Assembly (NCBI GenBank): GCA_965208105.1
Contig: OZ242318.1
Coordinates: 4,416,001 to 4,480,000 of the forward strand
Origin: Candidatus Latescibacterota bacterium
GTDB lineage: Bacteria > Latescibacterota > UBA2968 > UBA8231
Reading direction: 5' to 3'
DNA: 64,000 nucleotides
Shown: piece after piece, positions 1,166 to 21,784 of the stretch
Position numbering within the stretch: the stretch's first letter is position 1
How the letters are laid out: every line of letters starts with the position of its first letter
The notes under the pieces: generated by a model
Told to the model about the DNA's origin: nothing
The model's input: the letters and a program-made list of their open reading frames with translations, nothing else
The model's database searches: none
Translations under genes and position numbers: made by a program

Positions 1166-4100
1166 TCAATCGCGGCAGAAGGCCTGGGCGTTCTGGAACA
1201 GCCGCAGCCAGGGGCTGTCCTCCCCGCTCCAATCTTCGGGCTTCCAGGAGAGCTGGACGTTGCGGAAGACGCGCTCGGGATGGGGCATCATGATGGTGGC
1301 GCGGCCGTCGCTGCTGGTCAGGGAGGTGATGCCCCGCGGCGAGCCGTTGGGGTTGCAAGGGTAGCGCTCGGTGGGCGCGCCGTGGTTGTCCACGAAGCGC
1401 ATGCAGACCTGTCCCTCCGCCATGGCGCGGGACATGGCTTGCGAATCGGCGAAGGCGGCGCGGCCCTCGCCGTGGGCGCAGGCGATCCCCAGGCGCGAGC
1501 CGGCCATCCCGCGGAAGAGGATGGAGCGGCTTTCGAGAATTTCCACCGTGGCCAGGCGCGCTTCGAACTGCTCCGAGCGGTTGTGCAGGAAGGATGGCCA
1601 GAGCTCTGCGCCGGGTATCAGCTCGCGGAGGTGGGAGAGCATCTGGCAGCCGTTGCACACTCCCAGGGTGAAGGTATCGGGGCGCGCGAAGAAGGCGGCG
1701 AAGCTGGAGCGCATGTCCTGGTTGAAGAGGATGGAGCGGGCCCAGCCGGCGCCGGCGCCGAGGACGTCGCCGTAGCTGAATCCGCCGCAGGCCACCAGTC
1801 CCTGGAAGTCGTCGAGGCGGGCACGGCCAGCCTGCAGGTCGGTCATGGTTACGTCCACCGCGCCGAAGCCGGCCGCGTCGAAGGCGGCGGCCATTTCCAC
1901 CTGGCCGTTGATGCCCTGCTCGCGCAGGATGGCCACCCGCGGCCGCGGACCGCCGTTGCGGGCGGGGAGGACGCCCCCCGTGGCTCTGAACTGCAGGCCG
2001 GGGTCGGCGCCGTCGGCGATGGCCTCGTACTCCTCCCGGGCGCAGTCCGGGTTGTCACGGTGGGCCTGCATGAGGAAGGTGAGCTCGGACCAGGCCTGCT
2101 GCAGGGCGGCGACGGAGTCTCTGTAAATGCAATTATTTCCCTGATGGATCTGCAGCTGGCCCGAGTCGTCGGGCTGACCAAGAGGATGGAAGATTTCCAG
2201 AAGGGAATACTCGCCCAATACTTCTCTGACCTCCGTCTCCCGTTCCTCATCGTACTGGATCACCGCCCCGGCCTCCTCGGAGAACAGGACCGCCAGCGGA
2301 TCGCCGCCGAGAGAAGTGATGTCGAGAGCGAGGCCGCTGCGGCTGGCGAAGGCCATCTCCGCCACGGTGACGAAGAGGCCGCCGTCGGAGCGGTCGTGGT
2401 AGGCCAGCAGCAGGCCGCTTCCGATCATCTCCTGGACGGCGTGGTAGAAGCGCCCCAGGTCGCCGGGGTCGATGTCAGGGGCGGCGTCGCCCAGCTTGCC
2501 GTATACCTGCGCCAGGGCCGATGCGCCCAGGCGGTTGCGGCCGCCGCCCAGGTCGATGAGCGCCAGCCTGGCGCCCGGGGTTTTCTTGAGCTCCGGCGTC
2601 AAGGTGCGGCGGATGTCCAGCACCGGGGCGAAAGCCGAGATCACCAGGCTGAGGGGGGCGGTCACCTTGCGGGACTCGCCGCCGCGGCCGCGCCACAGGG
2701 TGCGCATGGAGAGACTGTCCTTGCCCACGGGTATGGCCACCCCCAGGGCGGGGCAGAACTCCATTCCCAGGGCGCGCACCGTGTCGAAGAGCCGGGCGTC
2801 CTCGCCCTCCTCGCCGCAGGCGCACATCCAGTTGGCCGCCAGCTTTACGCGGCCTATGGGGCCGATGGACGCCGCGGCGATGTTGGCGATGGCCTCGGCC
2901 ACCGCCATGCGCCCGGCGGCGGGGGAGTCGATCAGGGCCAGCGGGGCGCGCTCGCCCATGGCCATGGCCGATCCCCGGTAGCCCTTGAAGGAGGCTGCGG
3001 TGACGGCGGCGTCGGCGACGGGCACCTGGTAGGGGCCGACCATCTGGTCGCGGGCGACGAGGCCGGTGACGCTGCGGTCGGCGATGGTGACCAGGAAGGT
3101 CTTGGCGGCCACCGCGGGAAAGCGCAGCACGCGGGCGGCAGCCTCCGGAATGGAAACGCCGGAAAGGTCGAGGGGCGCCAGCTTCTCGCCGCCGCGGCGG
3201 ACGTCGCGCTCCATTCTGGGAGGCTTGCCCAGAATGATCTCCAGGTCGAGGCCGTCGATGGGCACCTCGGCGCCGAGCGGGTCGCGCAGGGTGAGCTTGC
3301 CGTCGCCGCTGATCTCGCCGATCACCGCGAACAGGCAGCGCTCGCGCTCCGCCAGGGCGGCGAAGCGCCGGAGGTCGGCGCGGCCGATTACCAGGACGTA
3401 GCGCTCCTGGGCTTCGTTGCTCCAGATCTGCATGGGGCTCATGCCGGGATCGTCGTTGTGGACGGCGCGCAGGTCGAAGCAGGCGCCGCTCTTCTCCACC
3501 AGCTCGGGGCAGGCGTTGGAGAGCCCTCCGGCGCCGACGTCGTGGATGCTGCGGATGGGGTTGTCGCGTCCCAGGGAGATGCAGCGGTCGATCAGGTCCT
3601 GGCAGCGGCGCTGCATCTCCGGGTTGTCGCGCTGCACCGAGGCGAAGTCCAGGTCCTCCGCGTTGCTGCCGCTGTCCATGCTGGAGGCGGCTCCCCCTCC
3701 CAGGCCGATGAGCATGGCCGGCCCCCCCAACTGGATCACGTAGTCCCCCTGGCGCAGCTCCTTCTTTTCCACGTGCCCGGCGTCGATGAGGCCGACCCCG
3801 CCGGCCACCATGATGGGCTTGTGATATCCGCGGTGGCGCCCGTCCACCACCCCCTCGAAGGTGCGGAAGAGGCCGCAGATGTTGGGACGCCCGAACTCGT
3901 TGCCGAAGGCCGCCGCGCCGATGGGCGCCTCGGTCATGATCTCCAGGGGAGTGGCCAGTCGGGAGGGAAACTCGCTGCGCTCCTCTTCCCACGGCTGGAT
4001 GCAGCCGGGGATGTGGAGGTGGGAGGTGAAGTAGGCGCAGAGGCCGGCCTGGGATCGTGCGCCGGTTCCGGTGGATCCCTCGTCGCGGATCTCGCCGCCG

Positions 4101-12047: not shown

Positions 12048-13520
12048 TCAGCTCATCCAGTCCTTGCGGTACTGGTCCGACCACTTGGTGGTGATTTTTT
12101 TCGACTTGGACCAGAAGTCGATGGCGCCGGGACCGGTTATGTCGCCTCCGAAGCTGCTCTGGTTCCAGCCCCCGAAGGCGAAAGGTTCCCGCGGCACCGG
12201 CACACCGATGTTGATTCCGATCATGCCGGAGCTGGCGCGTTCGCTGAAATGCTGGGCGACTGCGCCGGAGTTGGTGTAGATGGCCGCGGCGTTGCCGTAC
12301 GGATTGGCGTTCTCGATCTCCAGGGCCTCGTCCAGGTCCCTGCAGCGAATGACGGTAAGGGTCGGACCGAAGATCTCGTCGCAGGCGGCCTCGTGATCCG
12401 GGGCGGCGTGGTCAATGAGCGAGGGGCCGACATAATGGCCTTCGGGATGCGCCTCCGCGGAGATGGATCGGCGCCCGTCCACCGCCGCTTCGGCGCCGTC
12501 GGCCTCGGCCCGGTCGATATATCCTTCGATGCGCCGAAGCGCCTTGTCGCTGATCACCGCGCCAATGTCCCTGCCGGCCTCCATGCCGGCCATCTTCTCC
12601 CGCACCTTGTCGACGATGTGATCGGTGGCTCCCACGGCCAGAAGCACGCTCGCGGCCATGCAGCGCTGGCCGGCGCAGTCGGTGGAGGATGCGATGATGT
12701 TGGCGGCGGTGGTCTCCGGATCGGCGTCGGGCATCACCACCAGGTGGTTCTTGGCCCCGCCCATGGCGCGCACCCGCTTTCCGGCCGCGCAGCCGCGGTC
12801 ATATACCTTGCGGGCAACCGGGGTCGAGCCTACGAAGCCGAGGGCGGCGATGCCGGGATGGTCGCAGAGGGCTTCGACAATTTCGGCATCTCCATGGACT
12901 ACCGAAAATATGCCTGCCGGCAACCCGGCTTCGGCGAAGAGCCTGGCCACCTCCACGCCTCCCAGGGGCGTCTGCTCGGATGGCTTGAGGATGAAGGCGT
13001 TGCCCAGGCCGATGGCCATGGGGGCCATCCACAGCGGCACCATGGCGGGAAAGTTGAACGGGGTGATCCCGGCGACCACCCCCAGGGGATAGCGCAGGGT
13101 CTTGCACTCGATGCCGCGGCTTACCTCGAGCACGTTCCCGGCGGCGATCTGCGGCAGGCTGGTGGCGAACTCGATGCACTCGATGCCGCGCCCGACGCTG
13201 GCCGTAGCTTCTTCCTCGGTCTTGCCGTTCTCGAGGCTTATCAGCTCCGCCAGGCTCTCCGTTCGTTCCTCGAAGATGGCCTTTGCCCTGTACATAACCT
13301 GTACCCGCTCCTTGGTGGTCTGGGCTCCCCACTCCTCCTGGGCGGCGGCCGCACTCTCCACCACCGCGTCGAGCTCCGCCGCGGTGGTCACCGGGACCTC
13401 GGCGATGGCGCCGCCCGTGGCCGGGGCCCGCAGGGGCAGAATGCGCTCGGATATGCTCTCCACCTCCCGTCCGCCGACGATATTCGGCACTTTTGAGGCG
13501 GCAACTGTCTGGGTGCTCAT
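12048..13520 (-). CDS. mmsA: CoA-acylating (methyl)malonate-semialdehyde dehydrogenase (MmsA/IolA family)
   Basis: GITPFNFPAMVP, FVGSTPVA, MGGAKNH, AGQRCMA, EIFGP, GINIGVPVP. Confidence 0.9.
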   Translation of the reverse strand: MSTQTVAASKVPNIVGGREVESISERILPLRAPATGGAIAEVPVTTAAELDAVVESAAAAQEEWGAQTTKERVQVMYRAKAIFEERTESLAELISLENGKTEEEATASVGRGIECIEFATSLPQIAAGNVLEVSRGIECKTLRYPLGVVAGITPFNFPAMVPLWMAPMAIGLGNAFILKPSEQTPLGGVEVARLFAEAGLPAGIFSVVHGDAEIVEALCDHPGIAALGFVGSTPVARKVYDRGCAAGKRVRAMGGAKNHLVVMPDADPETTAANIIASSTDCAGQRCMAASVLLAVGATDHIVDKVREKMAGMEAGRDIGAVISDKALRRIEGYIDRAEADGAEAAVDGRRSISAEAHPEGHYVGPSLIDHAAPDHEAACDEIFGPTLTVIRCRDLDEALEIENANPYGNAAAIYTNSGAVAQHFSERASSGMIGINIGVPVPREPFAFGGWNQSSFGGDITGPGAIDFWSKSKKITTKWSDQYRKDWMS

Positions 13521-13548
13521 GGTGCAACTCCTCTCGTTTCGGTCTCGA

Positions 13549-14559
13549 TCAGGTGGGGCGAAGCTCCACCGGCCTGTTGGCGGCGCCGGAGCGGATGATC
13601 CCGTCGAGGACGCTCAGAACCTGCAGGTTGTTCCTGCCACTGGTTTCGGGTTCGGGACCGCCCCGCAGCCAGGCGGCGAAGCTGGAGGCCACCTGGCGGT
13701 CCAGGGGGGAGCGGTCGAGATTTTCGTCGATGGCCAGGGGCCGCAGGCCGGTCTGGCGATCCTCGCCATGGAACAGCTCCTCTTCGGGGCCGAATCCGCC
13801 CTGGCCGCGGTAGACCAGGGCAGCCCTGGCGCACTCCACCCGGAATTCGCACCAGTGGGTGCGCGCGTCCGAAGTGGATACCATGGCCATGCGGCAGCCG
13901 TTCTCGAATGTCAGCTCCGCGGTGACCGCCGCTTCGCGCCTCCACGTGGTCTCCGGAGGGCGGTAGGCGTGGCCATGGACCTCGACCACGGGCTGGTTCA
14001 TCATCGCAATCAGCGAGTCCACCTCGTGGACGGTCATCTGCCACAGTTGGGAATAGGGGGAGTCGGGGTACTCCGCGCCTCGCGCCTTGTAGGAGACCAT
14101 GTGTCCCGTCTGCGGGGTCCCGAAGGCGTTGGCGCCCAGCAGGCGGCGCACCGTGCGCTGTCCCGGCAGGTAGCGCCACTGCTGTGTGACCGCGATCTTG
14201 AGGCCGCGGGACTCGGCGGTGTCGAGCAGCCGCCGCGCCGATTCCAGCTCTACCGCGAAGGGCTTCTCGACCAGGACGTGCTTGCCCGCCAGCAGGGCCT
14301 TCTCGATCAGCTCTTCGTGGGTCCGGGCCCAAGTGGCGATCATCACACCGTCGCAGTCGGATTCCGCCAGCGCCTCGTCGAAGGAACGGTATCCCATTCC
14401 CGCAGGCAGGCTGAAATGCTCCAGCGCCTCGGCGAGCCGGCCGGGGTCCAGATCGACCAGCCCGGCCACCTCGAACTGAGCGGGGAGTTCAATGAAACTC
14501 CTCAGGTGGCTGCGGCCGCGGCCTGCCCCCGCCACGATCATGCGAATCGGTTCGGTCAT
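13549..14559 (-). CDS. Gfo/Idh/MocA family oxidoreductase
   Basis: GAGRGR Rossmann motif, GKHVLVEKP. Confidence 0.88.
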   Translation of the reverse strand: MTEPIRMIVAGAGRGRSHLRSFIELPAQFEVAGLVDLDPGRLAEALEHFSLPAGMGYRSFDEALAESDCDGVMIATWARTHEELIEKALLAGKHVLVEKPFAVELESARRLLDTAESRGLKIAVTQQWRYLPGQRTVRRLLGANAFGTPQTGHMVSYKARGAEYPDSPYSQLWQMTVHEVDSLIAMMNQPVVEVHGHAYRPPETTWRREAAVTAELTFENGCRMAMVSTSDARTHWCEFRVECARAALVYRGQGGFGPEEELFHGEDRQTGLRPLAIDENLDRSPLDRQVASSFAAWLRGGPEPETSGRNNLQVLSVLDGIIRSGAANRPVELRPT

Positions 14560-14587
14560 GGATATCTCCTTGGCAAAGTATTGCGGT

Positions 14588-16075
14588 TCAACCTTCTTCC
14601 CCCAACCTGTAGGAATAGAGGCTGGCGGCGTTGTCGGACTGGATGTGCAGGCGGATCCTGCGGCCGGCGAAGCGGGAAAGATCCCTGCCCTCCTCGCCCC
14701 AGGTAATCTCACAACTCACCTCGTCGCCGCATATCAGGCCGTTGCAGGCTTCGAAGGAAAATCCCGGCGCCTCCTCCATATCGTCGATCACCCGCACCAG
14801 CACCCTGGCAAAGGGGGCGGCGGCGTTGATGTAAAGCCTGGGAGCAGTGACCATGATGGGCTCGGTCATGACCTCTCCTCCACGGATGCCGCAGCGCAGG
14901 GCCACGAACCCGTCCTTGCGCAGGGTCGCCACACCGATGAAGCTCTCGAACATGCCCTGGGTCCCATGGGCCTGCGGTCGGCCCGAGTACCACATGTACA
15001 GGGTGTCGCCCCTGAGAACGGGAGGGTTGGCCGAGAAGGTCGCCCAGGCGCAGTCCCAGGAACCGGGAGACCCCACCGGAAGAAACTCCTCGCGCCTGCC
15101 GACCCGCTGCCAGTGGTCCAAGTCGCGGGCGGCCACCAGTTGGGTGGGTCCCAGCTCGGCCGCGGATTGGAGCACGCCCAGGAACCCCAGGTACTGGTTC
15201 CCGTAGACGAAGGGGGTCATCACGTAGAACTGGTCCATGGGGTGGTCGAAGTCGTCCGGCTTCAACACGGTCTTGAGCGCAGTCCAGTGGACGAAGTCGG
15301 GGCTGGTGGACATGGCGATGACGCGGCGGTACTTCTTCCACTCCACCACGAAGTGGTCCAGGATGGTGCCGTAGCGGCGCGAGGTGGCGATGTAGCGCCC
15401 CTGCATGGGATCGTGGACCAGGGTTCCTCCGTCGCCCCCCCGGGGAACGCAGATCTCCTCGCCCAGCTTCCAGTGGATGCCGTCGGCCGAGAAGAGGGAG
15501 TACATCCCGTGGTGGTCCTTTATTTTTTCCAGGAAAATCTTGCGCGCCTTGTTGCGTTCCTCGACGCTCATCCCGGTCTCGTCGAACCGGGGCGCGTCCT
15601 CGGTCATGCGCTGCTGGTAGATGCCCATCTTGTAGCGCCTGGAAGGGTCTTCCTCGTGAATGTCCTTGATGAAGCCCCAGGGGTCTCCGCCCAGATCCCC
15701 CATTTCCGCTGTGGGATAGACGATGTTGTTGGCTCGCGAGCCCTCGCAGGGAATGATGCCCAGCTCGGGTTTCTCCCACTCCACGCCGTCCCTGGAGGTG
15801 GCATAGCACATGAAATGACCGCTGCCGGTGCGAAGGTAGAGCTCCTCGTGAGCCGAGAGGTACCACATCTTGAACAAGCCCTCATCGTCGTCGAAGATCA
15901 CCGACCCCCACAACTGCACCGCCTTTCCCTCCCACGGTCTGTCGGGGCTCAGCACCGGCTCGGCCTGCAGGCGCCTGGGCTGCTGCACCTTGCGCACGAA
16001 TCCGGGATGGTCCTGGACCTCCGCGTCGTCGACGAAGAGATGCAGCCCAGGATCGTAGAGATTACCACCCTTCAT
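14588..16075 (-). CDS. Beta-propeller glycoside-hydrolase-like protein (GH32/43-like), no signal peptide
   Basis: PVLSPDRPWEG, FKMWY, YATSRDGVEWEKP, SADGIHW, SPDFVHW repeats, LRKDGFV. Confidence 0.7.
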   Translation of the reverse strand: MKGGNLYDPGLHLFVDDAEVQDHPGFVRKVQQPRRLQAEPVLSPDRPWEGKAVQLWGSVIFDDDEGLFKMWYLSAHEELYLRTGSGHFMCYATSRDGVEWEKPELGIIPCEGSRANNIVYPTAEMGDLGGDPWGFIKDIHEEDPSRRYKMGIYQQRMTEDAPRFDETGMSVEERNKARKIFLEKIKDHHGMYSLFSADGIHWKLGEEICVPRGGDGGTLVHDPMQGRYIATSRRYGTILDHFVVEWKKYRRVIAMSTSPDFVHWTALKTVLKPDDFDHPMDQFYVMTPFVYGNQYLGFLGVLQSAAELGPTQLVAARDLDHWQRVGRREEFLPVGSPGSWDCAWATFSANPPVLRGDTLYMWYSGRPQAHGTQGMFESFIGVATLRKDGFVALRCGIRGGEVMTEPIMVTAPRLYINAAAPFARVLVRVIDDMEEAPGFSFEACNGLICGDEVSCEITWGEEGRDLSRFAGRRIRLHIQSDNAASLYSYRLGEEG

Positions 16076-16220
16076 ATTTCATCCTTGCCTGGGTAAGGCC
16101 GACCGGGATGGCGAGACCGGGGGCGCGGCAGGCGCGGCGCCGGGGCCGTCTCCGCGGAGGTTCCGTCTCCATGTGGCAACCTTCCGCATGGATTTGGGAG
16201 AGGGTTGCTCCATCCCCGGA

Positions 16221-17255
16221 TCAGCTCCCACCCGGGTACTCCTCTCGCCAGTCCTCGCCCTTGTCAGGTGCATAGTCCGGCGTTTCCAGCCCGGAGCGGG
16301 GGTAGTGGTAGGCGCGGGTGTCGGCTTCATCCTTGTAGACGTACCAGGTGCAGGGCGCGGCGGGGTTCAGGACGTGATCCAGGGGCCGGAAGGGACGGCC
16401 GTTGCGCCGTCCCGGAAGCCACTCCTTGGCGATGCAACAATGGGTGCAGTACCAGTGGACCCCGGTCTTCTGCCAGGTCCACGAGTGCGCTTTTTTGTTG
16501 GTGCCCCGCTCGCCCGCCGCATGAGGTCCGCGCCCGGTCTCCGGGTCGCCGCGGCGCAGAACGCCGCCGCTGCCGCAGAGCTCCATAACCATCTTGTAGC
16601 GGTCCCCCTCGTCCACCAGGGTCATGTCGCCGCGCCTCCGGTCACCGCTGAAGTGGCCGCCGCGCATGCCTTCCACGGTGAGGGCCAGCTTCTCGTGGGG
16701 CGTCATCTTGTTCCAGCTCTCGTAGCGCTCCCCCCAGATTCCGCGATGGGTTTCCAGGATCGACTCGAGGACGGTTTCTTCTCCCCAGGTCGCGGCGAGG
16801 TAGGTGAGCAGATCCTGGATCCAGGCCACCAGCACGTCGTGGGGGAATTTGAACTGGAGGCGCATGTGGTCGAGCAGTTCGACGGCCTCGACCGACCTGC
16901 CCGGGCCGCCGCTGCCCTGCCCGGCGATGGCCTCCTTACAGCGGTCGCGCAGGTCCACTCCGAAATCGTAGGTCTCCCAGGTCTGCAACAGGCTGGGGGC
17001 GAGGTTTCCCGCCTCCGCCGGATCGACTCCCTTGTGGGCCAGGATATAGCGCATGATATCCCGCAGCCAGGTTACGAGAATGTCGTGCATGATGCGCATC
17101 TCCTGGTGAAAATAGTCCACCAGGGCACAGGCCTCCTCCGATCGGCCGCGGGCGATGGCCTCCTCCGCCAGGGTCTGAGTAGAGACTCCAAGGGTTTCCA
17201 GATCGTCCATCCGCAGCAATCGGCCCAGGACGGCATTGTGTTCGAGCCTGATCAT
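16221..17255 (-). CDS. Conserved hypothetical protein with internal helical duplication and Cys/His-rich C-terminus
   Basis: Start overlaps upstream stop (ATGA); CGSGG, YCTHCC, PC motifs. Confidence 0.8.
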   Translation of the reverse strand: MIRLEHNAVLGRLLRMDDLETLGVSTQTLAEEAIARGRSEEACALVDYFHQEMRIMHDILVTWLRDIMRYILAHKGVDPAEAGNLAPSLLQTWETYDFGVDLRDRCKEAIAGQGSGGPGRSVEAVELLDHMRLQFKFPHDVLVAWIQDLLTYLAATWGEETVLESILETHRGIWGERYESWNKMTPHEKLALTVEGMRGGHFSGDRRRGDMTLVDEGDRYKMVMELCGSGGVLRRGDPETGRGPHAAGERGTNKKAHSWTWQKTGVHWYCTHCCIAKEWLPGRRNGRPFRPLDHVLNPAAPCTWYVYKDEADTRAYHYPRSGLETPDYAPDKGEDWREEYPGGS

Positions 17256-18283
17256 TGGACCTCCTCCCGCACCTGCCGGGCCGCCTGCACCAGGACCTTC
17301 ATCTTCTCCAGCGCCAGCCAGCGCACGGTCTGGCTGAAGCCGCAGTCCGGCGCCACCCACAGCTTGTCCGCGGCGCAGTACTCCAGGGCGCTGCGGATTC
17401 GCCCCGCCACCACTTCCACCGGCTCCAGGTCGCGCCCCTTGACGTCTATGACGCCGGCGCAGAGGATCTTGTCACCGCCGTATTCCCGCCACAGTTCAAT
17501 CTCGTCCATGCCGCGGCTTGCGAACTCTATGTGGATTACGTCGGCTTCGAGGTCCTTGAAATGGGGGGCAAAGGCCGCAAAGCTGCGGTTCGAGGTGGCC
17601 GGCCGGCCGCGAAAATTGCCGAAGCATAGATGGAAGCCGATGGTGGCCTCGATCCCTTCGACGCAGGCGTTGAAGATTTCCACCATCTCCTGCGCTCCGC
17701 CGGGGACGATCCAGTAGGCGGGCTCGTCGAACTGCACGTGGCTGCAGCCGGCCGCAACCACGGCGCGCAGCTCCCTGTTGACGTAGGGCACCAGGGCCCA
17801 GGCTATCTCCCCTTTGTTGGCATAGATCTTTCCCGGGTCGATGCGGAAGGCCTGGGTGATCGGACTTTGCAGCGGGGCGATCAGCGGCAGTTCGGTGCGG
17901 CTGCGGGCGTACTTCCATTCCTCCACGATGCCATAGCCGCCGGGCACCTCCAGGGACTCCACGCAGCGGAAGGATTCCAGCCGGTCGGGGCCGGGATAGC
18001 CCCATTTGCGCGGGAATTCCAGCGGCTCGAGGCCGCGCACGAAGTGGTGGAAGTTCCAGGTGAAATCGGCGCGCTGCATCTCGCCGTCGGAAATGATGTC
18101 GAGGCCGGCCTCCTCCATGTCCATGATGGCGAGGTTGACGGCGTCCTTGAGCGCCTCGTCGATGTCGGCCGGCCCCATCTTGCCCTCCTCCACCGCCTCG
18201 CGCACCACCCACATCCAGCTCGGGATGCCGTGGCTGCCGATGGCCTGGGTGGGAATCAGGGGTAGATTCTCGTATGTCAGCAT
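17252..18283 (-). CDS. Short cobalamin-independent methionine synthase II-like (MetE C-terminal domain) Zn enzyme
   Basis: ISDGEMQR, QFDEP, HLCFGN (HxC), IEFA, GVID, PDCG; 343 aa. Confidence 0.88.
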   Translation of the reverse strand: MLTYENLPLIPTQAIGSHGIPSWMWVVREAVEEGKMGPADIDEALKDAVNLAIMDMEEAGLDIISDGEMQRADFTWNFHHFVRGLEPLEFPRKWGYPGPDRLESFRCVESLEVPGGYGIVEEWKYARSRTELPLIAPLQSPITQAFRIDPGKIYANKGEIAWALVPYVNRELRAVVAAGCSHVQFDEPAYWIVPGGAQEMVEIFNACVEGIEATIGFHLCFGNFRGRPATSNRSFAAFAPHFKDLEADVIHIEFASRGMDEIELWREYGGDKILCAGVIDVKGRDLEPVEVVAGRIRSALEYCAADKLWVAPDCGFSQTVRWLALEKMKVLVQAARQVREEVQ

Positions 18284-18305
18284 TCAGGTTCACTCCGGTA
18301 TTGGG

Positions 18306-19178
18306 CTAGTCCATCTCGTATCCGCCGTCCACGTTCAAGGTCTGGCCGGTGATGTAGTCGGCGTCGGACGAGCACAGGAAGGCGATGGCGGCGGCAATGT
18401 CGCCTGGACTGGAAGCGCGTTGCAGGGGAATCGTGCGGATAAAGGCGGCCATGGCCTCCCCGGGCCGGGCGCCGAAGAGGGCGCCGCGGTCCTGGTCGAT
18501 GGCCTCCCACATGGGCGTCGGCACGACCCCGGGAGCAACGGCGTTGACGTTTATGTTGTAGGGAGCCAGCGCCAGGGCCGCCGACTGGGTGACGCTGATG
18601 ATGGCAGCCTTGCTGGCGGCGTAGTGGGTCGACAGCGGCCGTCCCCGCCGGCCCGAAATGGAGGCCAGATTGACGATCTTTCCGTAGCTTTCGCTGCGCC
18701 GCGGCGCCTGTTCGGATTCGCCCGCCTCCATGCTGAAGACGTCGGCAGGCGACTGGGACTTCTTCAGATCGTCGGGGGCCTGGTCGATCATCCGCCGCGC
18801 CACCGCCTGCAGGCAGAAGAAGGTGCCGCGCAGGTTTACGTCGATCACCCGGTCCCAGTCCTCCTCGGTCAGGTCCAGCATCGGCTTGGTCTGCACCACC
18901 CCGGCGTTGTTGACCAGAATGTCCACCTTGCCGAAGTGGGAGACGACCTCATCCACCATCCCGCGCACCGACTCCGCATCCGATATGTCCACGGGACAGG
19001 CCAGGGCGCGCCGTCCCGATTCCTCTATCTCGGCGGCGGTGGCCGCTGCCGTCTCCTCATTGTATTCCGCGACTGCTATGTTGGCGCCTTCCCCGGCGAG
19101 ATACAGCGCTATGCCCTTGCCTATGCCCTGTCCCGCGCCGGTGACGATCGCCGTCTTACCCGCCAGTCTCTGTCCCAT
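18306..19178 (-). CDS. SDR family NAD(P)-dependent oxidoreductase
   Basis: TGAGQGIG, NNAG, HYAASK (YxxxK), ITGQTLNVDGG. Confidence 0.92.
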   Translation of the reverse strand: MGQRLAGKTAIVTGAGQGIGKGIALYLAGEGANIAVAEYNEETAAATAAEIEESGRRALACPVDISDAESVRGMVDEVVSHFGKVDILVNNAGVVQTKPMLDLTEEDWDRVIDVNLRGTFFCLQAVARRMIDQAPDDLKKSQSPADVFSMEAGESEQAPRRSESYGKIVNLASISGRRGRPLSTHYAASKAAIISVTQSAALALAPYNINVNAVAPGVVPTPMWEAIDQDRGALFGARPGEAMAAFIRTIPLQRASSPGDIAAAIAFLCSSDADYITGQTLNVDGGYEMD

Positions 19179-19203
19179 GGCTGCCGCTTCCCCACCCAAG
19201 ACA

Positions 19204-20859
19204 CTAGCGCCAGGCGTCTACCGAGACGCTTTTATGGTAGTTGGCGCCCATGATGCGCCAGTAGCCGTTGGTCTCTCCACCGACTACGACCAGATGGATT
19301 TTATCCTGGGGGAATACCGGAATCAACTCGTCGTCCGCCGCTGCGAGCATGGCAGCGTAGGGTTCGACCCCATTCAAGGCCCGAGGATGGAGATAGTTCT
19401 CAACGAGCTGGTAATCCCAGAACACGGCGGCGGGCATGGTGGCGTTGTCGTGCACCCAGCGAATCAGTTTCTCCTTGGTGTCGAATCCGCCCCGGTCCAC
19501 GAACTGGCGCGCCGTTATGGGGTCCAACACCAAGGTGGGCGACTCGAAGGGGTCCAGTCCCCGCAGCAGGTTGGTCACGTGCTCGCGCCAGAATTTTTGC
19601 CGCAATCCGAGGGAGAACGAGGTGGCGCGGCAGGATCCGAAAATGCTCGCCACGCTCTCGTCGGCGGCAAAGCCCTTCTCCACGTGGAATGGCTCCCATG
19701 GGCTTCTCTCCTCGTTTTCGGCATAGGTGAGGTTGTTGTAGGCGTAGTTGTTCCCCTGGGACCCCATATAGGTCTTTCCGGGCACCGACCCTCCCTGCAG
19801 GTTCTGCGACAGCAGGCCATAGGCGCGGCCGATGGTGGCGTTGGCGTGATTGTACGGACCCATGGCGCCGATTCCGCAATTCATCCCGATCTCGCGGCGG
19901 ATGGGGCCATTGACCACCACCATCGCCGCCGCCGAGCTGGTCGTGCTGCCGCGCGCGGTTACCCCGCTGGCGGCCAGGGCCAGGATCACCGGGAAGTACT
20001 CGGGCTCGGCCCCGGCCATCACCGCGTTGACCGCCACCTTCTCCACCGTGAAGCTCCAGGCTTCCCGCGTCGCCGTCGGTCTCAGTTCACCTACCGTCTC
20101 CTCCGGGCTGTGGCTGGTGGCCGCCAGCATCGCCTCTACCTTCTCCCGGGTGGGCAGGACGATGGGCAACCGATCAGTCCACTCTTTCTCCAAAAAGAGG
20201 CGGTGCAGGTTATCCTCGGTATCGGGCTCGACCCATCTCGGCGTCGAGCGTTCGAAGCCGCCGGGATTCTCGTCCTCCTCGCTCAGGGGCCGGGTGAGGA
20301 CCTCCACCACCTCCGCCATCACCGGCCGGCCGGTGACCGGGTCCCTGCCGTCGACGTAGGCTCTCAGCTCCTCGGGGGATTTGCCCATGACGGGCTGGGG
20401 CACGAAGACGAAGCGCTGGCGAGGCATGCCCCGGGCGTAGGCGACCTGGGTCACTACGTCCGCGAAGGACTCGGTCTGGATGGAAGCGGTGGGCACTCCG
20501 TACTCGTCTTCCAGGGTGATGCAATGCTCGGCGACCGCCGGCGCGCAGGTGCTTCAGTGGCCGACGCCGAGGATGGCCGCGTCTCCCCTGGCGCGGATCT
20601 CCTCGAAGAGCCCCGCGTCCCGTTCGGTGTAGACTCCGGACTTGCGCCGGGTCTCCGTCCTCACCCGGGGCATGTGCTCGGCGAACCAGTTCCCCATCTG
20701 CCTCATGAGGATGTCGCCGTCGTCGAAGCGGCAGTCCACGAGGTAGACGGTCCTGCCATCCAGGCCGGAGACCCTCGGGGCCATGCTCAGGGGCTCGATG
20801 GCGGGAGGGTGCCCCGTGGGGTTCATCACCGCAATTTTTCCGTTTCCTGTCTTTTCCAA
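19204..20859 (-). CDS. UGSC-family selenoprotein (thioredoxin-like UxxC domain fused to a large uncharacterised domain); TGA at 20554-20556 read as Sec
   Basis: ORFs 20554-20859 and 19204-20496 are in frame, joined by GVGH-TGA-STCAPAVAEHCITLEDEYGVP; SECIS-like hairpin downstream; GGAGGAG RBS before the TTG start. Confidence 0.82.
20525..20547 (-). promoter_or_regulatory. Putative bacterial SECIS element
   Basis: mRNA UGC..CGGC-GGUC-GCCG-A-GCA; G-led apical loop begins 17 nt after the UGA. Confidence 0.65.
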
Positions 20860-21758
20860 TGTGATTCTCCTCCGATTTTTCCGATATGGTCCCTCAGTAT
20901 GTCCAGAAATGCCTGCGCCGCCGGCGACCTCCGCCGCCCACGGTGCTCGATCAGACCGATGACCCGGGGTTCCAGGCCGCGCACCCGGACGGACCGCAGA
21001 AGACCTGACTCGGCCTCCTTCTCAACCGCCATCCGGGGCACCAGGGCGATCCCCATGCCAACTTCCACGAAGCGCTTGATGACCTCGATGCTGGCCAGGT
21101 TCATCGCCGGCTGAAGCTCAAGATTCGCCCTGATGAACGCCTCCTCCAGGAGCCGGCGGCTGGTGCTGCCGCGCTCCAGGGCAAGAAGCGGGAATTCGAC
21201 GATATCCTGCAGGCGCACCTGGTTCCTTCGCGCCAGCGGGTGGTCCGGCCGGCAGATCAGCACGTCGCTGCGCTCGAAAAGCTCCTCGCTGACCAGGTCG
21301 CGGTGCTTTGCCGGCAGCGTCGCCAGGCCGAAGTCCACCGCGTGGTCGAGCACCATTTGTCCTATTTCCGACGACATGCGGTTGCGGATATCCAGCTCTA
21401 CGCCGGCATACTGCTCCCTGAACTGCTGCAAAGGGCCGGGGAGTAGGTAGGTGCAGTTGGTGTCGCTGGTGCCGATCACCAGGCGCCCACGCAAGACCTG
21501 CTGCAGGGTGGCGATTTCCTCCCTGGCCACTTCGAGCCGATCGAACACTTCCTGGACGCGGCGGTAGAGGATCTCTCCAGCCGGGGTCAGGCGGATGTTC
21601 TTGCGCAGGCGCTCGAAGAGGATTTCTCCAAGCTCTTCCTCCAGGGCCTTGATCTGCAGGCTGATGGCCGGCTGGGTGAGGAAGAGCTTGTCCGCCGCGC
21701 GGGTGAAACTCCTCTCCCGGGCGATCTCGAAGAAGCCGCGGAGTTGATACAGGTCCAT
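20826..21758 (-). CDS. LysR family transcriptional regulator
   Basis: SFTRAADKLFLTQPAISLQIKALEEELG HTH; substrate-binding domain. Confidence 0.95.
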   Translation of the reverse strand: MDLYQLRGFFEIARERSFTRAADKLFLTQPAISLQIKALEEELGEILFERLRKNIRLTPAGEILYRRVQEVFDRLEVAREEIATLQQVLRGRLVIGTSDTNCTYLLPGPLQQFREQYAGVELDIRNRMSSEIGQMVLDHAVDFGLATLPAKHRDLVSEELFERSDVLICRPDHPLARRNQVRLQDIVEFPLLALERGSTSRRLLEEAFIRANLELQPAMNLASIEVIKRFVEVGMGIALVPRMAVEKEAESGLLRSVRVRGLEPRVIGLIEHRGRRRSPAAQAFLDILRDHIGKIGGESHWKRQETEKLR

Positions 21759-21784
21759 AGAGGCGTTCGGTAGCATTTCGAGAA

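Follow-up and report, generated by a model that had tools for sequence, protein, structure and literature searches.

A Predicted UGSC-Family Selenoprotein Fused to a Conserved Partner Domain in a Candidatus Latescibacterota Bacterium

Introduction

Bacterial selenoproteins that carry selenocysteine (Sec, U) in a UxxC motif include GrdB and PrdB, both of which need a partner polypeptide and draw their electrons from the thioredoxin system. The motif is shared by the UGSC family (Pfam PF24696; NCBIfam NF041046; Zhang and Gladyshev 2007/2008), whose canonical members are small proteins of about 150 amino acids (aa) with Sec in a U-G-S-C motif, and whose function is given as unknown in an earlier survey (PMC1976440) and, still, as largely uncharacterized in a 2026 review (PMC13188914); no paper turned up under the names PF24696 or UGSC family. 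The study of the Global Ocean Sampling selenoproteome mentions a UGSC/Unknown_1 fusion for ocean metagenomes and calls the UGSC fold likely thioredoxin-like (Zhang and Gladyshev 2008; PMC2398784). Here, we analyze a gene of this kind at positions 19204..20859 on the minus strand of a 64,000-nucleotide (nt) stretch of DNA (hereafter the window; positions 4,416,001 to 4,480,000 of contig OZ242318.1, assembly GCA_965208105.1) from a Candidatus Latescibacterota bacterium.

The encoded protein resembles the UGSC family in its profile match, in the position of Sec in the UxxC motif and in having homologues with cysteine (Cys) in place of Sec, but differs from the small UGSC proteins in carrying U-S-T-C rather than U-G-S-C and in its length of 551 aa rather than about 150 aa. 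Its architecture, together with the split forms found in related genomes, matches the UGSC/Unknown_1 fusion (PMC2398784), whose Unknown_1 part may be the same C-terminal domain. Judged from sequence comparison, 20859..19204 on the minus strand is almost certainly a single gene in which the UGA at codon 102 is recoded to Sec by the bacterial SelB/tRNA-Sec system via a selenocysteine insertion sequence (SECIS). With comparably high confidence we predict that its product is a 551-residue two-domain protein, composed of an N-terminal UGSC-family domain and a C-terminal domain of about 340 residues that is the usual genomic partner of UGSC. Taken as a whole, we give this explanation of the locus a probability of roughly 0.9.

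Results and Discussion

A Single Reading Frame across an In-Frame UGA Codon

Under conventional translation, the minus strand contains two open reading frames (ORFs) in one common frame, the one encoding 101 aa (20859..20554) and ending in GVGH-TGA, the other encoding 430 aa (20496..19204), and the two are separated by 19 codons that read STCAPAVAEHCITLEDEYG. When TGA is translated as U, the whole becomes one open frame that runs from a TTG start (20859-20857) to a TAG stop (19206-19204) and reads ...GVGH-U-STCAPAVAEHCITLEDEYG-VPTAS... across the junction; it comprises 551 residues, with U at position 102 within the stretch G-H-U-S-T-C (residues 100-105), and contains no further stop before the TAG. 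The UGA itself, codon 102 and the Sec codon of the U-S-T-C motif, lies at 20554..20556 (minus strand), an assignment drawn from the TGA/Cys column in homologues and from independent contigs, both described below. A Shine-Dalgarno-like GGAGGAG (20867..20873, minus strand), placed 7 nt 5' of the TTG, is a candidate ribosome-binding sequence. The initial annotation of this DNA had described the two same-frame ORFs, the 19 codons between them and the G-H-U-S-T-C stretch just as they are found here, and the 551-aa Sec protein that it proposed agrees both with the single-TGA frame and with homologues of 546-572 aa that align with it end to end.

Selenocysteine or Cysteine at a Single Column

A homologue search of 5.8 billion proteins, in which 8000 candidates were scored and 120 homologues listed, gave 6562 matches at E<=0.001 among the scored candidates. 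Among the matches listed, those at 61-67% identity are 540-572 aa long and cover 98-100% of the query; the closest ones (75-79% identity; 25 of the 120 listed) are 430-442 aa long and begin just 3' of the position of the TGA, and are therefore gene calls truncated at the Sec codon. The expectation that standard annotation would split this gene is thus borne out by the public records of its nearest relatives. In an alignment of 19 full-length and six shortened homologues, every full-length sequence (19/19) reads GVGH-C-STC, with Cys where the window's gene has the UGA.

At the nucleotide level, we compared 106 related gene copies, made up of 87 copies from the best 80 loci (one genome per species; 602 relatives confirmed) and 19 orthologues from the window's own phylum. 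The column of codon 102 holds TGA in 85 copies, TGC or TGT in 21 and nothing else. Within the best 80 loci, 66 copies have TGA, 18 TGC and 3 TGT, so distributed that 59 loci carry TGA only, 19 Cys only and 2 both; the Cys-only loci are for the most part alphaproteobacterial (17/19). A UxxC or CxxC motif is present in all 106 copies (USTC 72, CSTC 16, CSNC 5, USSC 5, UPGC 4, USMC 2, USGC 2). The window's phylum is represented by 168 scanned genomes, 43 of which matched, and the 19 with a fused orthologue (this genome included) all have exactly one in-frame TGA, always in the context VGH-TGA-STCAP. The alternation of TGA and Cys codons at one column is the classical signature of a Sec/Cys pair.

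Some loci hold more than one copy of the fused gene. Five (L086, L090, L100, L113 and L125) have two fused Sec paralogues each within about 6 kb, and in two others (L114 and L124) one Sec and one Cys fused paralogue stand side by side.

A Conserved SECIS Hairpin within the Coding Sequence

The initial annotation had pointed to a SECIS-like hairpin, CGGC-GGUC-GCCG, with a G-led loop 17 nt after the UGA. This hairpin is present (20540..20529) and is conserved with compensating changes. Numbering nucleotides from the U of the UGA as 1, the core (20526..20542, minus strand) consists of the pairs G15-C31, C16-G30, C17-G28, G18-C27, G19-C26 and C20-G25 with A29 bulged, and is closed by a GGUC loop at nt 21-24 (20536-20533); the hairpin begins 12-14 nt after the UGA and lies entirely within the codons for C-A-P-A-V-A-E-H. 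The predicted minimum-energy fold contains a possible lower helix (U10-A37, G11-C36, C12-G35 and G13-U34) that would extend the element to 20520..20547 on the minus strand; we list it tentatively. In the window's lineage the helix consists of 4 bp, a 1-nt bulge on the 3' side (A29) and 2 bp; up to 8 pairs follow one another without a break in most other subfamilies. Published constraints on bacterial SECIS elements (PMC13188914) ask for a loop of 3-9 nt with a G at one of its first two positions, a spacing of 16-37 nt, at least 4 bp in the upper stem and a minimum free energy of -7.5 kcal/mol or lower. The window's hairpin lies inside all of these ranges: its loop has 4 nt and starts with GG, the spacing is 17 nt, the stem has 4 bp plus 2 bp, and the energy is -12.1 kcal/mol.

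Conservation of the loop and of the core pairs provides the principal support for this element. The GGUC loop is invariant in 81/81 distinct Sec forms, from all subfamilies, and the core pairs 17-28, 18-27, 19-26 and 20-25 are kept in 81, 81, 75 and 81 of these, respectively. Three of the four show two-sided compensating changes, namely 18-27 (GC 72, CG 7, AU 1, GU 1), 19-26 (GC 47, AU 27, GU 1, unpaired 6) and 20-25 (CG 73, AU 7, UG 1); farther out, at 13-32, 14-31 and 15-30, pairing is retained in anything from a minority to about two thirds of the sequences, which is why the lower helix is tentative. The covariation score is 0.264; shuffled alignments give 0.121 +/- 0.011, with 0/500 as high, and sliding the 3' partners by 1-3 columns lowers the score to 0.112 or less. 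Kinship alone can beat the shuffle control without any structure, and for this reason the slid control and the Cys forms weigh more. Among the Cys forms (n = 21), the four pairs are kept in 1 and GGTC in 5, and no sequence keeps both.

Codon usage gives a further view of the same element. The peptide U-STCAP-A/V-VA is shared by 39 distinct Sec forms, and in these codons +5 to +8 (CCG GCG GUC GCC) are invariant at the third position, the flanking codons varying freely; in six Cys forms with this peptide, codons +5 to +8 vary (CCC/CCG 3:3, GCC/GCG 3:3, GTC/GTG 4:2 and GCC/GCG 2:4). Elsewhere in the family, changes in the stem accompany changes in the encoded peptide (P-A-V-A to P-E-V-S-G or P-T-V-V-G), and protein sequence and RNA stem therefore covary. 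On the comparative grounds of covariation, an invariant loop and loss in the Cys forms, the hairpin is a real SECIS element. The SECIS of Escherichia coli fdhF also has a GGUC apical loop, at a nearly equal distance from its UGA.

Decoding Capacity and Authenticity of the UGA

The same 4.85-Mb genome encodes the components required to read UGA as Sec, each scoring above its curated cut-off: selA (557.7 bits against 267.9), selB (351.5 against 242.25), selD (369.5 against 125) and tRNA-Sec (69.6 against 47), the last of which is also called by ARAGORN as tRNA-SeC with anticodon tca. The selD gene (locus L010, G000:C1:3653826-3654752, outside the window) itself contains one in-frame TGA, and selenophosphate synthetase is therefore also a selenoprotein in this organism.

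The TGA at 20554-20556 is covered by contigs of three DNA runs from three independent metagenome studies (X5, X6 and X9), and no contig has a differing letter there. Because these contigs do differ from the window at other positions, they come from related strains and are not copies of the same data. A genome of the same genus (91% identity) has the TGA as well, and it is bridged by a 182-nt metatranscriptomic contig (X16; 20477-20658). The runs that contain the gene are labeled as marine and sponge metagenomes. At 19820-19875 and 19988-20099, short contigs from marine and sponge samples pile up on the most conserved motifs of the C-terminal domain and then diverge, with a summed depth of up to about 919 compared with about 19 elsewhere in the gene, which suggests that many different members of the family are present in these communities.

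Domain Composition of the Predicted Protein

The UGSC domain occupies residues 11-170 (20350..20829, minus strand). The Pfam profile PF24696 matches there with 89.4 bits against a cut-off of 25, aligning profile positions 2-160 of 172 straight across the TGA, and gives 92.7 bits when the N-terminal 200 aa are scored alone; in an alignment with a standalone UGSC protein, U102-S-T-C105 stands opposite U-G-S-C, Sec on Sec. An AlphaFold2 model of the full-length protein, built from 53 sequences, has a predicted local distance difference test score (pLDDT) of 91.9 and a predicted template modeling score (pTM) of 0.90. In this model, residues 37-153 form five beta-alpha units, with U102 predicted to lie directly before a helix at 105-120. 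The 50 listed fold matches to residues 32-196 are CheY, flavodoxin, B12-binding or Rossmann-like domains with Z 8.3-10.9, that is, generic alpha/beta sandwiches. The initial annotation had placed a UxxC motif of the UGSC family in a thioredoxin-like fold: the family and the motif stand, but the modeled N-terminal domain looks flavodoxin-like rather than thioredoxin-like, and a thioredoxin fold is not thereby refuted.

A linker or transition segment (residues 171-212; 20224..20349, minus strand), containing short helices in the model, lies between the end of the Pfam match and the start of the match to the separate partner gene of related genomes (from residue ~213). The C-terminal partner domain (residues ~213-551; 19207..20223, minus strand), which is encoded by its own gene in those genomes, has nearly invariant motifs (WTD-LP-LPT, VEKVAVNAVMAG, NGP-R, NHANATIGRA and AENEE) and a strongly conserved putative polar pocket composed of D229, E273, N278, N317, R321, N340, R345, E381, E383 and H392. 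A Pfam scan of this domain returned no family above threshold, the closest candidate, DUF3234, being rejected as sub-threshold (16.6 bits against 23.7). The two-domain description in the initial annotation, a UxxC redox domain joined to a large uncharacterized domain, is in agreement with a PF24696 match at the N-terminus and no Pfam family at the C-terminus.

Structure comparison offered few leads for the partner domain. A sequence search of solved structures with the single protein gave a chance match (E 0.75), and the same search with the family profile gave 0 matches at E<=10; Foldseek comparison of the whole model with the PDB returned nothing at E<=0.001. Modeled alone, the domain has a pLDDT of 86.4, and its best Foldseek match is a weak one to class I fumarate hydratase (6uqm_A; E 7.9e-4, probability 0.77, template modeling score 0.24, root-mean-square deviation [rmsd] 17.7). 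VIA-align gave Z 5.0 to 6mso_A (rmsd 5.9 over 170 aligned residues) and a best Z of 5.5 over 72 residues, no chain reaching Z 8; we read this as the lack of a clear solved relative, not as a new fold. Any likeness to class I (Fe-S) fumarate hydratase and serine dehydratase-type domains is confined to these weak fold matches, and the partner domain has no invariant Cys for a cluster. The ESM Atlas contains unnamed clusters of about 370 aa and one cluster bearing UGSC, and gave no lead to function.

Fused and Split Forms of the Same Pair

The C-terminal domain is encoded by a gene of its own (40-48% identical) in another family within the class of this organism, and directly after it comes a standalone UGSC gene with TGA in the context GLAD-U-GSC. 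This split arrangement accounts for 19 match rows in the scan of the phylum and was read at one locus, L041, where a C-domain gene, a UGSC selenoprotein gene (U-G-S-C) and, from its translation, an MsrB-like gene follow one another on one strand (1477-3440; similar in L042-L050). The occurrence of one pair in both fused and split form is the usual sign of a single functional unit, and we take it to indicate that UGSC and its partner domain belong together in this way.

The fusion is also widespread. With a profile of the C-terminal domain, 6025 cluster representatives (50% identity) are detected at E<=0.001 and 1558 still at E<=1e-30; the name given by NCBI to the Cys forms is "UGSC family (seleno)protein". 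In presenting the fusion as hidden, the initial annotation was mistaken: it belongs to a large family that is named by NCBI, and a UGSC/Unknown_1 fusion was reported in 2008. The gene thus represents a known UGSC selenoprotein family whose fusion is widespread, named in databases and mentioned in print, and neither the pairing nor the fusion is new.

One Selenoprotein Gene or Two Genes

The most obvious alternative is that translation stops at the UGA to yield a 101-aa peptide and that a separate 430-aa protein is made from a GTG at 20496. Such a pair is exactly what ORF calling under translation table 11 returns, the public calls for the closest relatives (the 25 of 120 listed homologues discussed above) take the same form, and some termination at the UGA is to be expected whenever selenium is scarce. 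However, both the PF24696 match and amino-acid conservation continue uninterrupted through the 19 codons between the ORFs, in which C105, P107 and V109 are invariant across 53 sequences; the Cys-form homologues are single proteins of about 550 aa; the covariation in the SECIS speaks against independent genes; and a UGSC domain ending at the UGA would, according to the model, lose its active-site helix. We accordingly regard two separate genes as very improbable. Still less credible, to the point of being nearly negligible, is that the TGA is an assembly or sequencing error for TGC, TGT or TGG, or that the gene is a pseudogene. The assembly is of metagenome type, with 93.9% completeness and 8.1% contamination, which leaves some room for such an error; yet the same TGA is found in the contigs of three other studies, in the same-genus genome and in all 19 phylum orthologues, no other stop or frameshift interrupts the 551 codons, and the synonymous sites of the hairpin are constrained.

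The interpretation as a single Sec-decoded UGSC fusion has its own weak points. The upper stem of the hairpin is short in the window's lineage and, compared with the bacterial SECIS consensus as represented by the bSECISearch model, whose constraints accommodate it, the element has a bulge on the 3' side; an E-value scan of 20440-20620 against Rfam found no SECIS family, only a chance int-alpA match (E 7.9). Furthermore, folding is as good or better in 186 of 200 dinucleotide shuffles (z = +1.23), and since the hairpin is no more stable than shuffled sequence its support is comparative, not thermodynamic. The metatranscriptomic contig that bridges the UGA has a depth of 2.6, and DNA may occur in RNA libraries; the RNA runs share only 0.06-0.10 of sampled words, and X16 otherwise covers just conserved family motifs. 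Finally, the NCBIfam profile NF041046 scores 71.8 bits against an equivalog cut-off of 125, which sets the protein apart from the canonical small UGSC proteins. The same profile gives 51-60 bits for four fused Cys forms and 161.1 bits for the standalone UGSC of a related genome; because the fused proteins fall below the cut-off, they are relatives and not equivalogs of the small proteins, and constitute a fused subfamily.

A Possible Redox Mechanism

We tentatively propose, at somewhat less than even odds, that the protein acts as a redox enzyme driven by the thioredoxin system, with U102/C105 as the redox pair and a substrate site in the C-terminal domain. The Sec-x-x-Cys pair would cycle between selenol/thiol and selenenylsulfide; it might shuttle electrons to the substrate site in the conserved polar pocket of the partner domain or resolve an intermediate that forms there; and it would be re-reduced by a flavoprotein of the thioredoxin reductase (TrxR) type or by the thioredoxin system. 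A more specific version, in which UGSC and its partner together make up a self-contained, selenium-dependent reductase whose fold has yet to be solved, powered by a TrxR-type flavoprotein and acting on a small molecule or a protein, seems to us unlikely.

The proposal draws on gene context in related loci, where a TrxR-like Pyr_redox_2 flavoprotein of about 320 aa is the sole gene family that recurs beside the fusion gene. By tblastn, at least 44 of the best 80 related loci have such a gene, and in at least 34 of the 80 no more than 400 nt separate it from the fusion gene, with which it usually shares the strand; both counts are lower bounds because some flanks are short. Several findings tell against the proposed mechanism. 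Neither the 64 kb of the window nor the 1.5 kb on either side of each phylum orthologue (n = 19) contains a TrxR-like gene, and the single TrxR homologue of this genome (39% identity) is 3.7 Mb away, so that the reductant would here have to be encoded elsewhere. The other neighbors across loci are heterogeneous (selD and Ndh-SelD fusions, one selB, TctC-type binding proteins at 5 loci, amidohydrolases, transporters and regulators), and the LysR, short-chain dehydrogenase/reductase (SDR) and MetE-like neighbors in the window are shared, within the phylum, only with the same-genus genome and give no clue to a substrate; nothing in the window points to one. The invariant residues of the C-terminal domain are polar or Gly/Pro and include no invariant Cys, and neither Foldseek nor VIA-align identified a clear solved structural relative; for these two reasons the chemistry that we assign to this domain is a guess.

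Two other modes of action deserve comparison with a thioredoxin-driven redox enzyme. By analogy with selenoprotein B, the protein might be a substrate reductase of the Grd/Prd type, in which Sec attacks a substrate bound covalently or tightly to the partner domain and C105 resolves the selenium-linked intermediate, rather than a simple disulfide relay. The UxxC motif is of the same type as that of PrdB (Table 2 of PMC2398784), UGSC has an obligatory partner domain, and TrxR-like genes adjoin the fusion; but the resemblance to GrdB/PrdB (PF07355; glycine/sarcosine/betaine and D-proline reductases) is one of outline only. No relation between the sequence profiles was detected: in an hmmscan of the N-terminal 200 aa, UGSC is the one family listed at E<=10 and GRDB is absent, although the filters of HMMER drop most matches above about E = 0.1, and there is no GRDB match in this genome, which says little since control genomes are equally silent. 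Nor does the partner domain have an invariant Cys or a Ser-Cys or Thr-Cys pair that could obviously give rise to a pyruvoyl group, leaving it with no recognizable pyruvoyl-forming site, and we judge this type of reductase improbable. Quite improbable, too, is a noncatalytic role, in which the UGSC domain would be a redox-sensing module or a carrier of selenium, sulfur or metal that regulates or loads the C-terminal domain. The modeled N-terminal domain does resemble receiver, B12-binding and flavodoxin-like modules, many of which act in regulation or carry a cofactor, and selD and Ndh-SelD genes adjoin some family members. Those fold matches, however, are to generic sandwiches, selD and selB neighbors are to be expected in any case because the gene needs Sec, and a UxxC motif with Sec in place of Cys where a helix begins is, both generally and according to PMC2398784, a typical feature of catalytic redox sites.

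Genomic Neighborhood

Upstream of the selenoprotein gene and co-directional with it lies a LysR-type gene (20826-21776), the last 34 nt of which also belong to the selenoprotein frame. Codon 12 of that frame is an ATG that has one base in common with the TGA stop of the LysR-type gene and might serve as an alternative start. Divergent transcription from their targets is the more frequent arrangement for LysR regulators. Downstream of the selenoprotein gene, the minus strand from 12048 to 19199 encodes an SDR, a MetE-like Meth_synt_2 protein, a GFO/IDH/MocA oxidoreductase and an aldehyde dehydrogenase, and contains two long ORFs with no Pfam matches (14588-16075 and 16221-17360). LysR, SDR and MetE-like genes were considered as conserved context and rejected, being near only 3, 4 and 2, respectively, of the 80 related loci. 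A GFO/IDH/MocA gene also flanks the orthologue at two loci (L051 and L052), and a Meth_synt_2 gene does so at one (L064).

In a number of unrelated genomes the immediate neighbor of the fused UGSC gene is a gene of the selenium pathway, namely a selD-like gene in L102 (5202-6278) and L119 (7917-8978) and selB in L107 (3308-5803). At two further loci, L116 (7681-10011) and L117 (7741-10041), the fused gene stands next to a fusion of a pyridine-nucleotide-disulfide oxidoreductase with SelD.

Implications for the UGSC Family

In public databases, this gene and dozens of those most closely related to it appear as N-terminally truncated proteins of 430-442 aa, where selenoproteins of about 550 aa should stand. 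The SECIS of the family, with GGUC at nt 21-24 and a stem that covaries with a P-x-V-x-G/A peptide, provides a simple rule for correcting their annotation. As a single-chain UGSC-partner fusion with Cys-form orthologues in cultured bacteria, such as strains of Rhizobium, Neorhizobium and Pseudonocardia, the protein is also a practical starting point for biochemistry. If the protein is a self-contained selenium-dependent reductase, the family would join the glycine and proline reductases as a further group of Sec-dependent substrate reductases, one very common in soil, marine and sponge-associated bacteria, and fused genes like this one would give the simplest form for its study.

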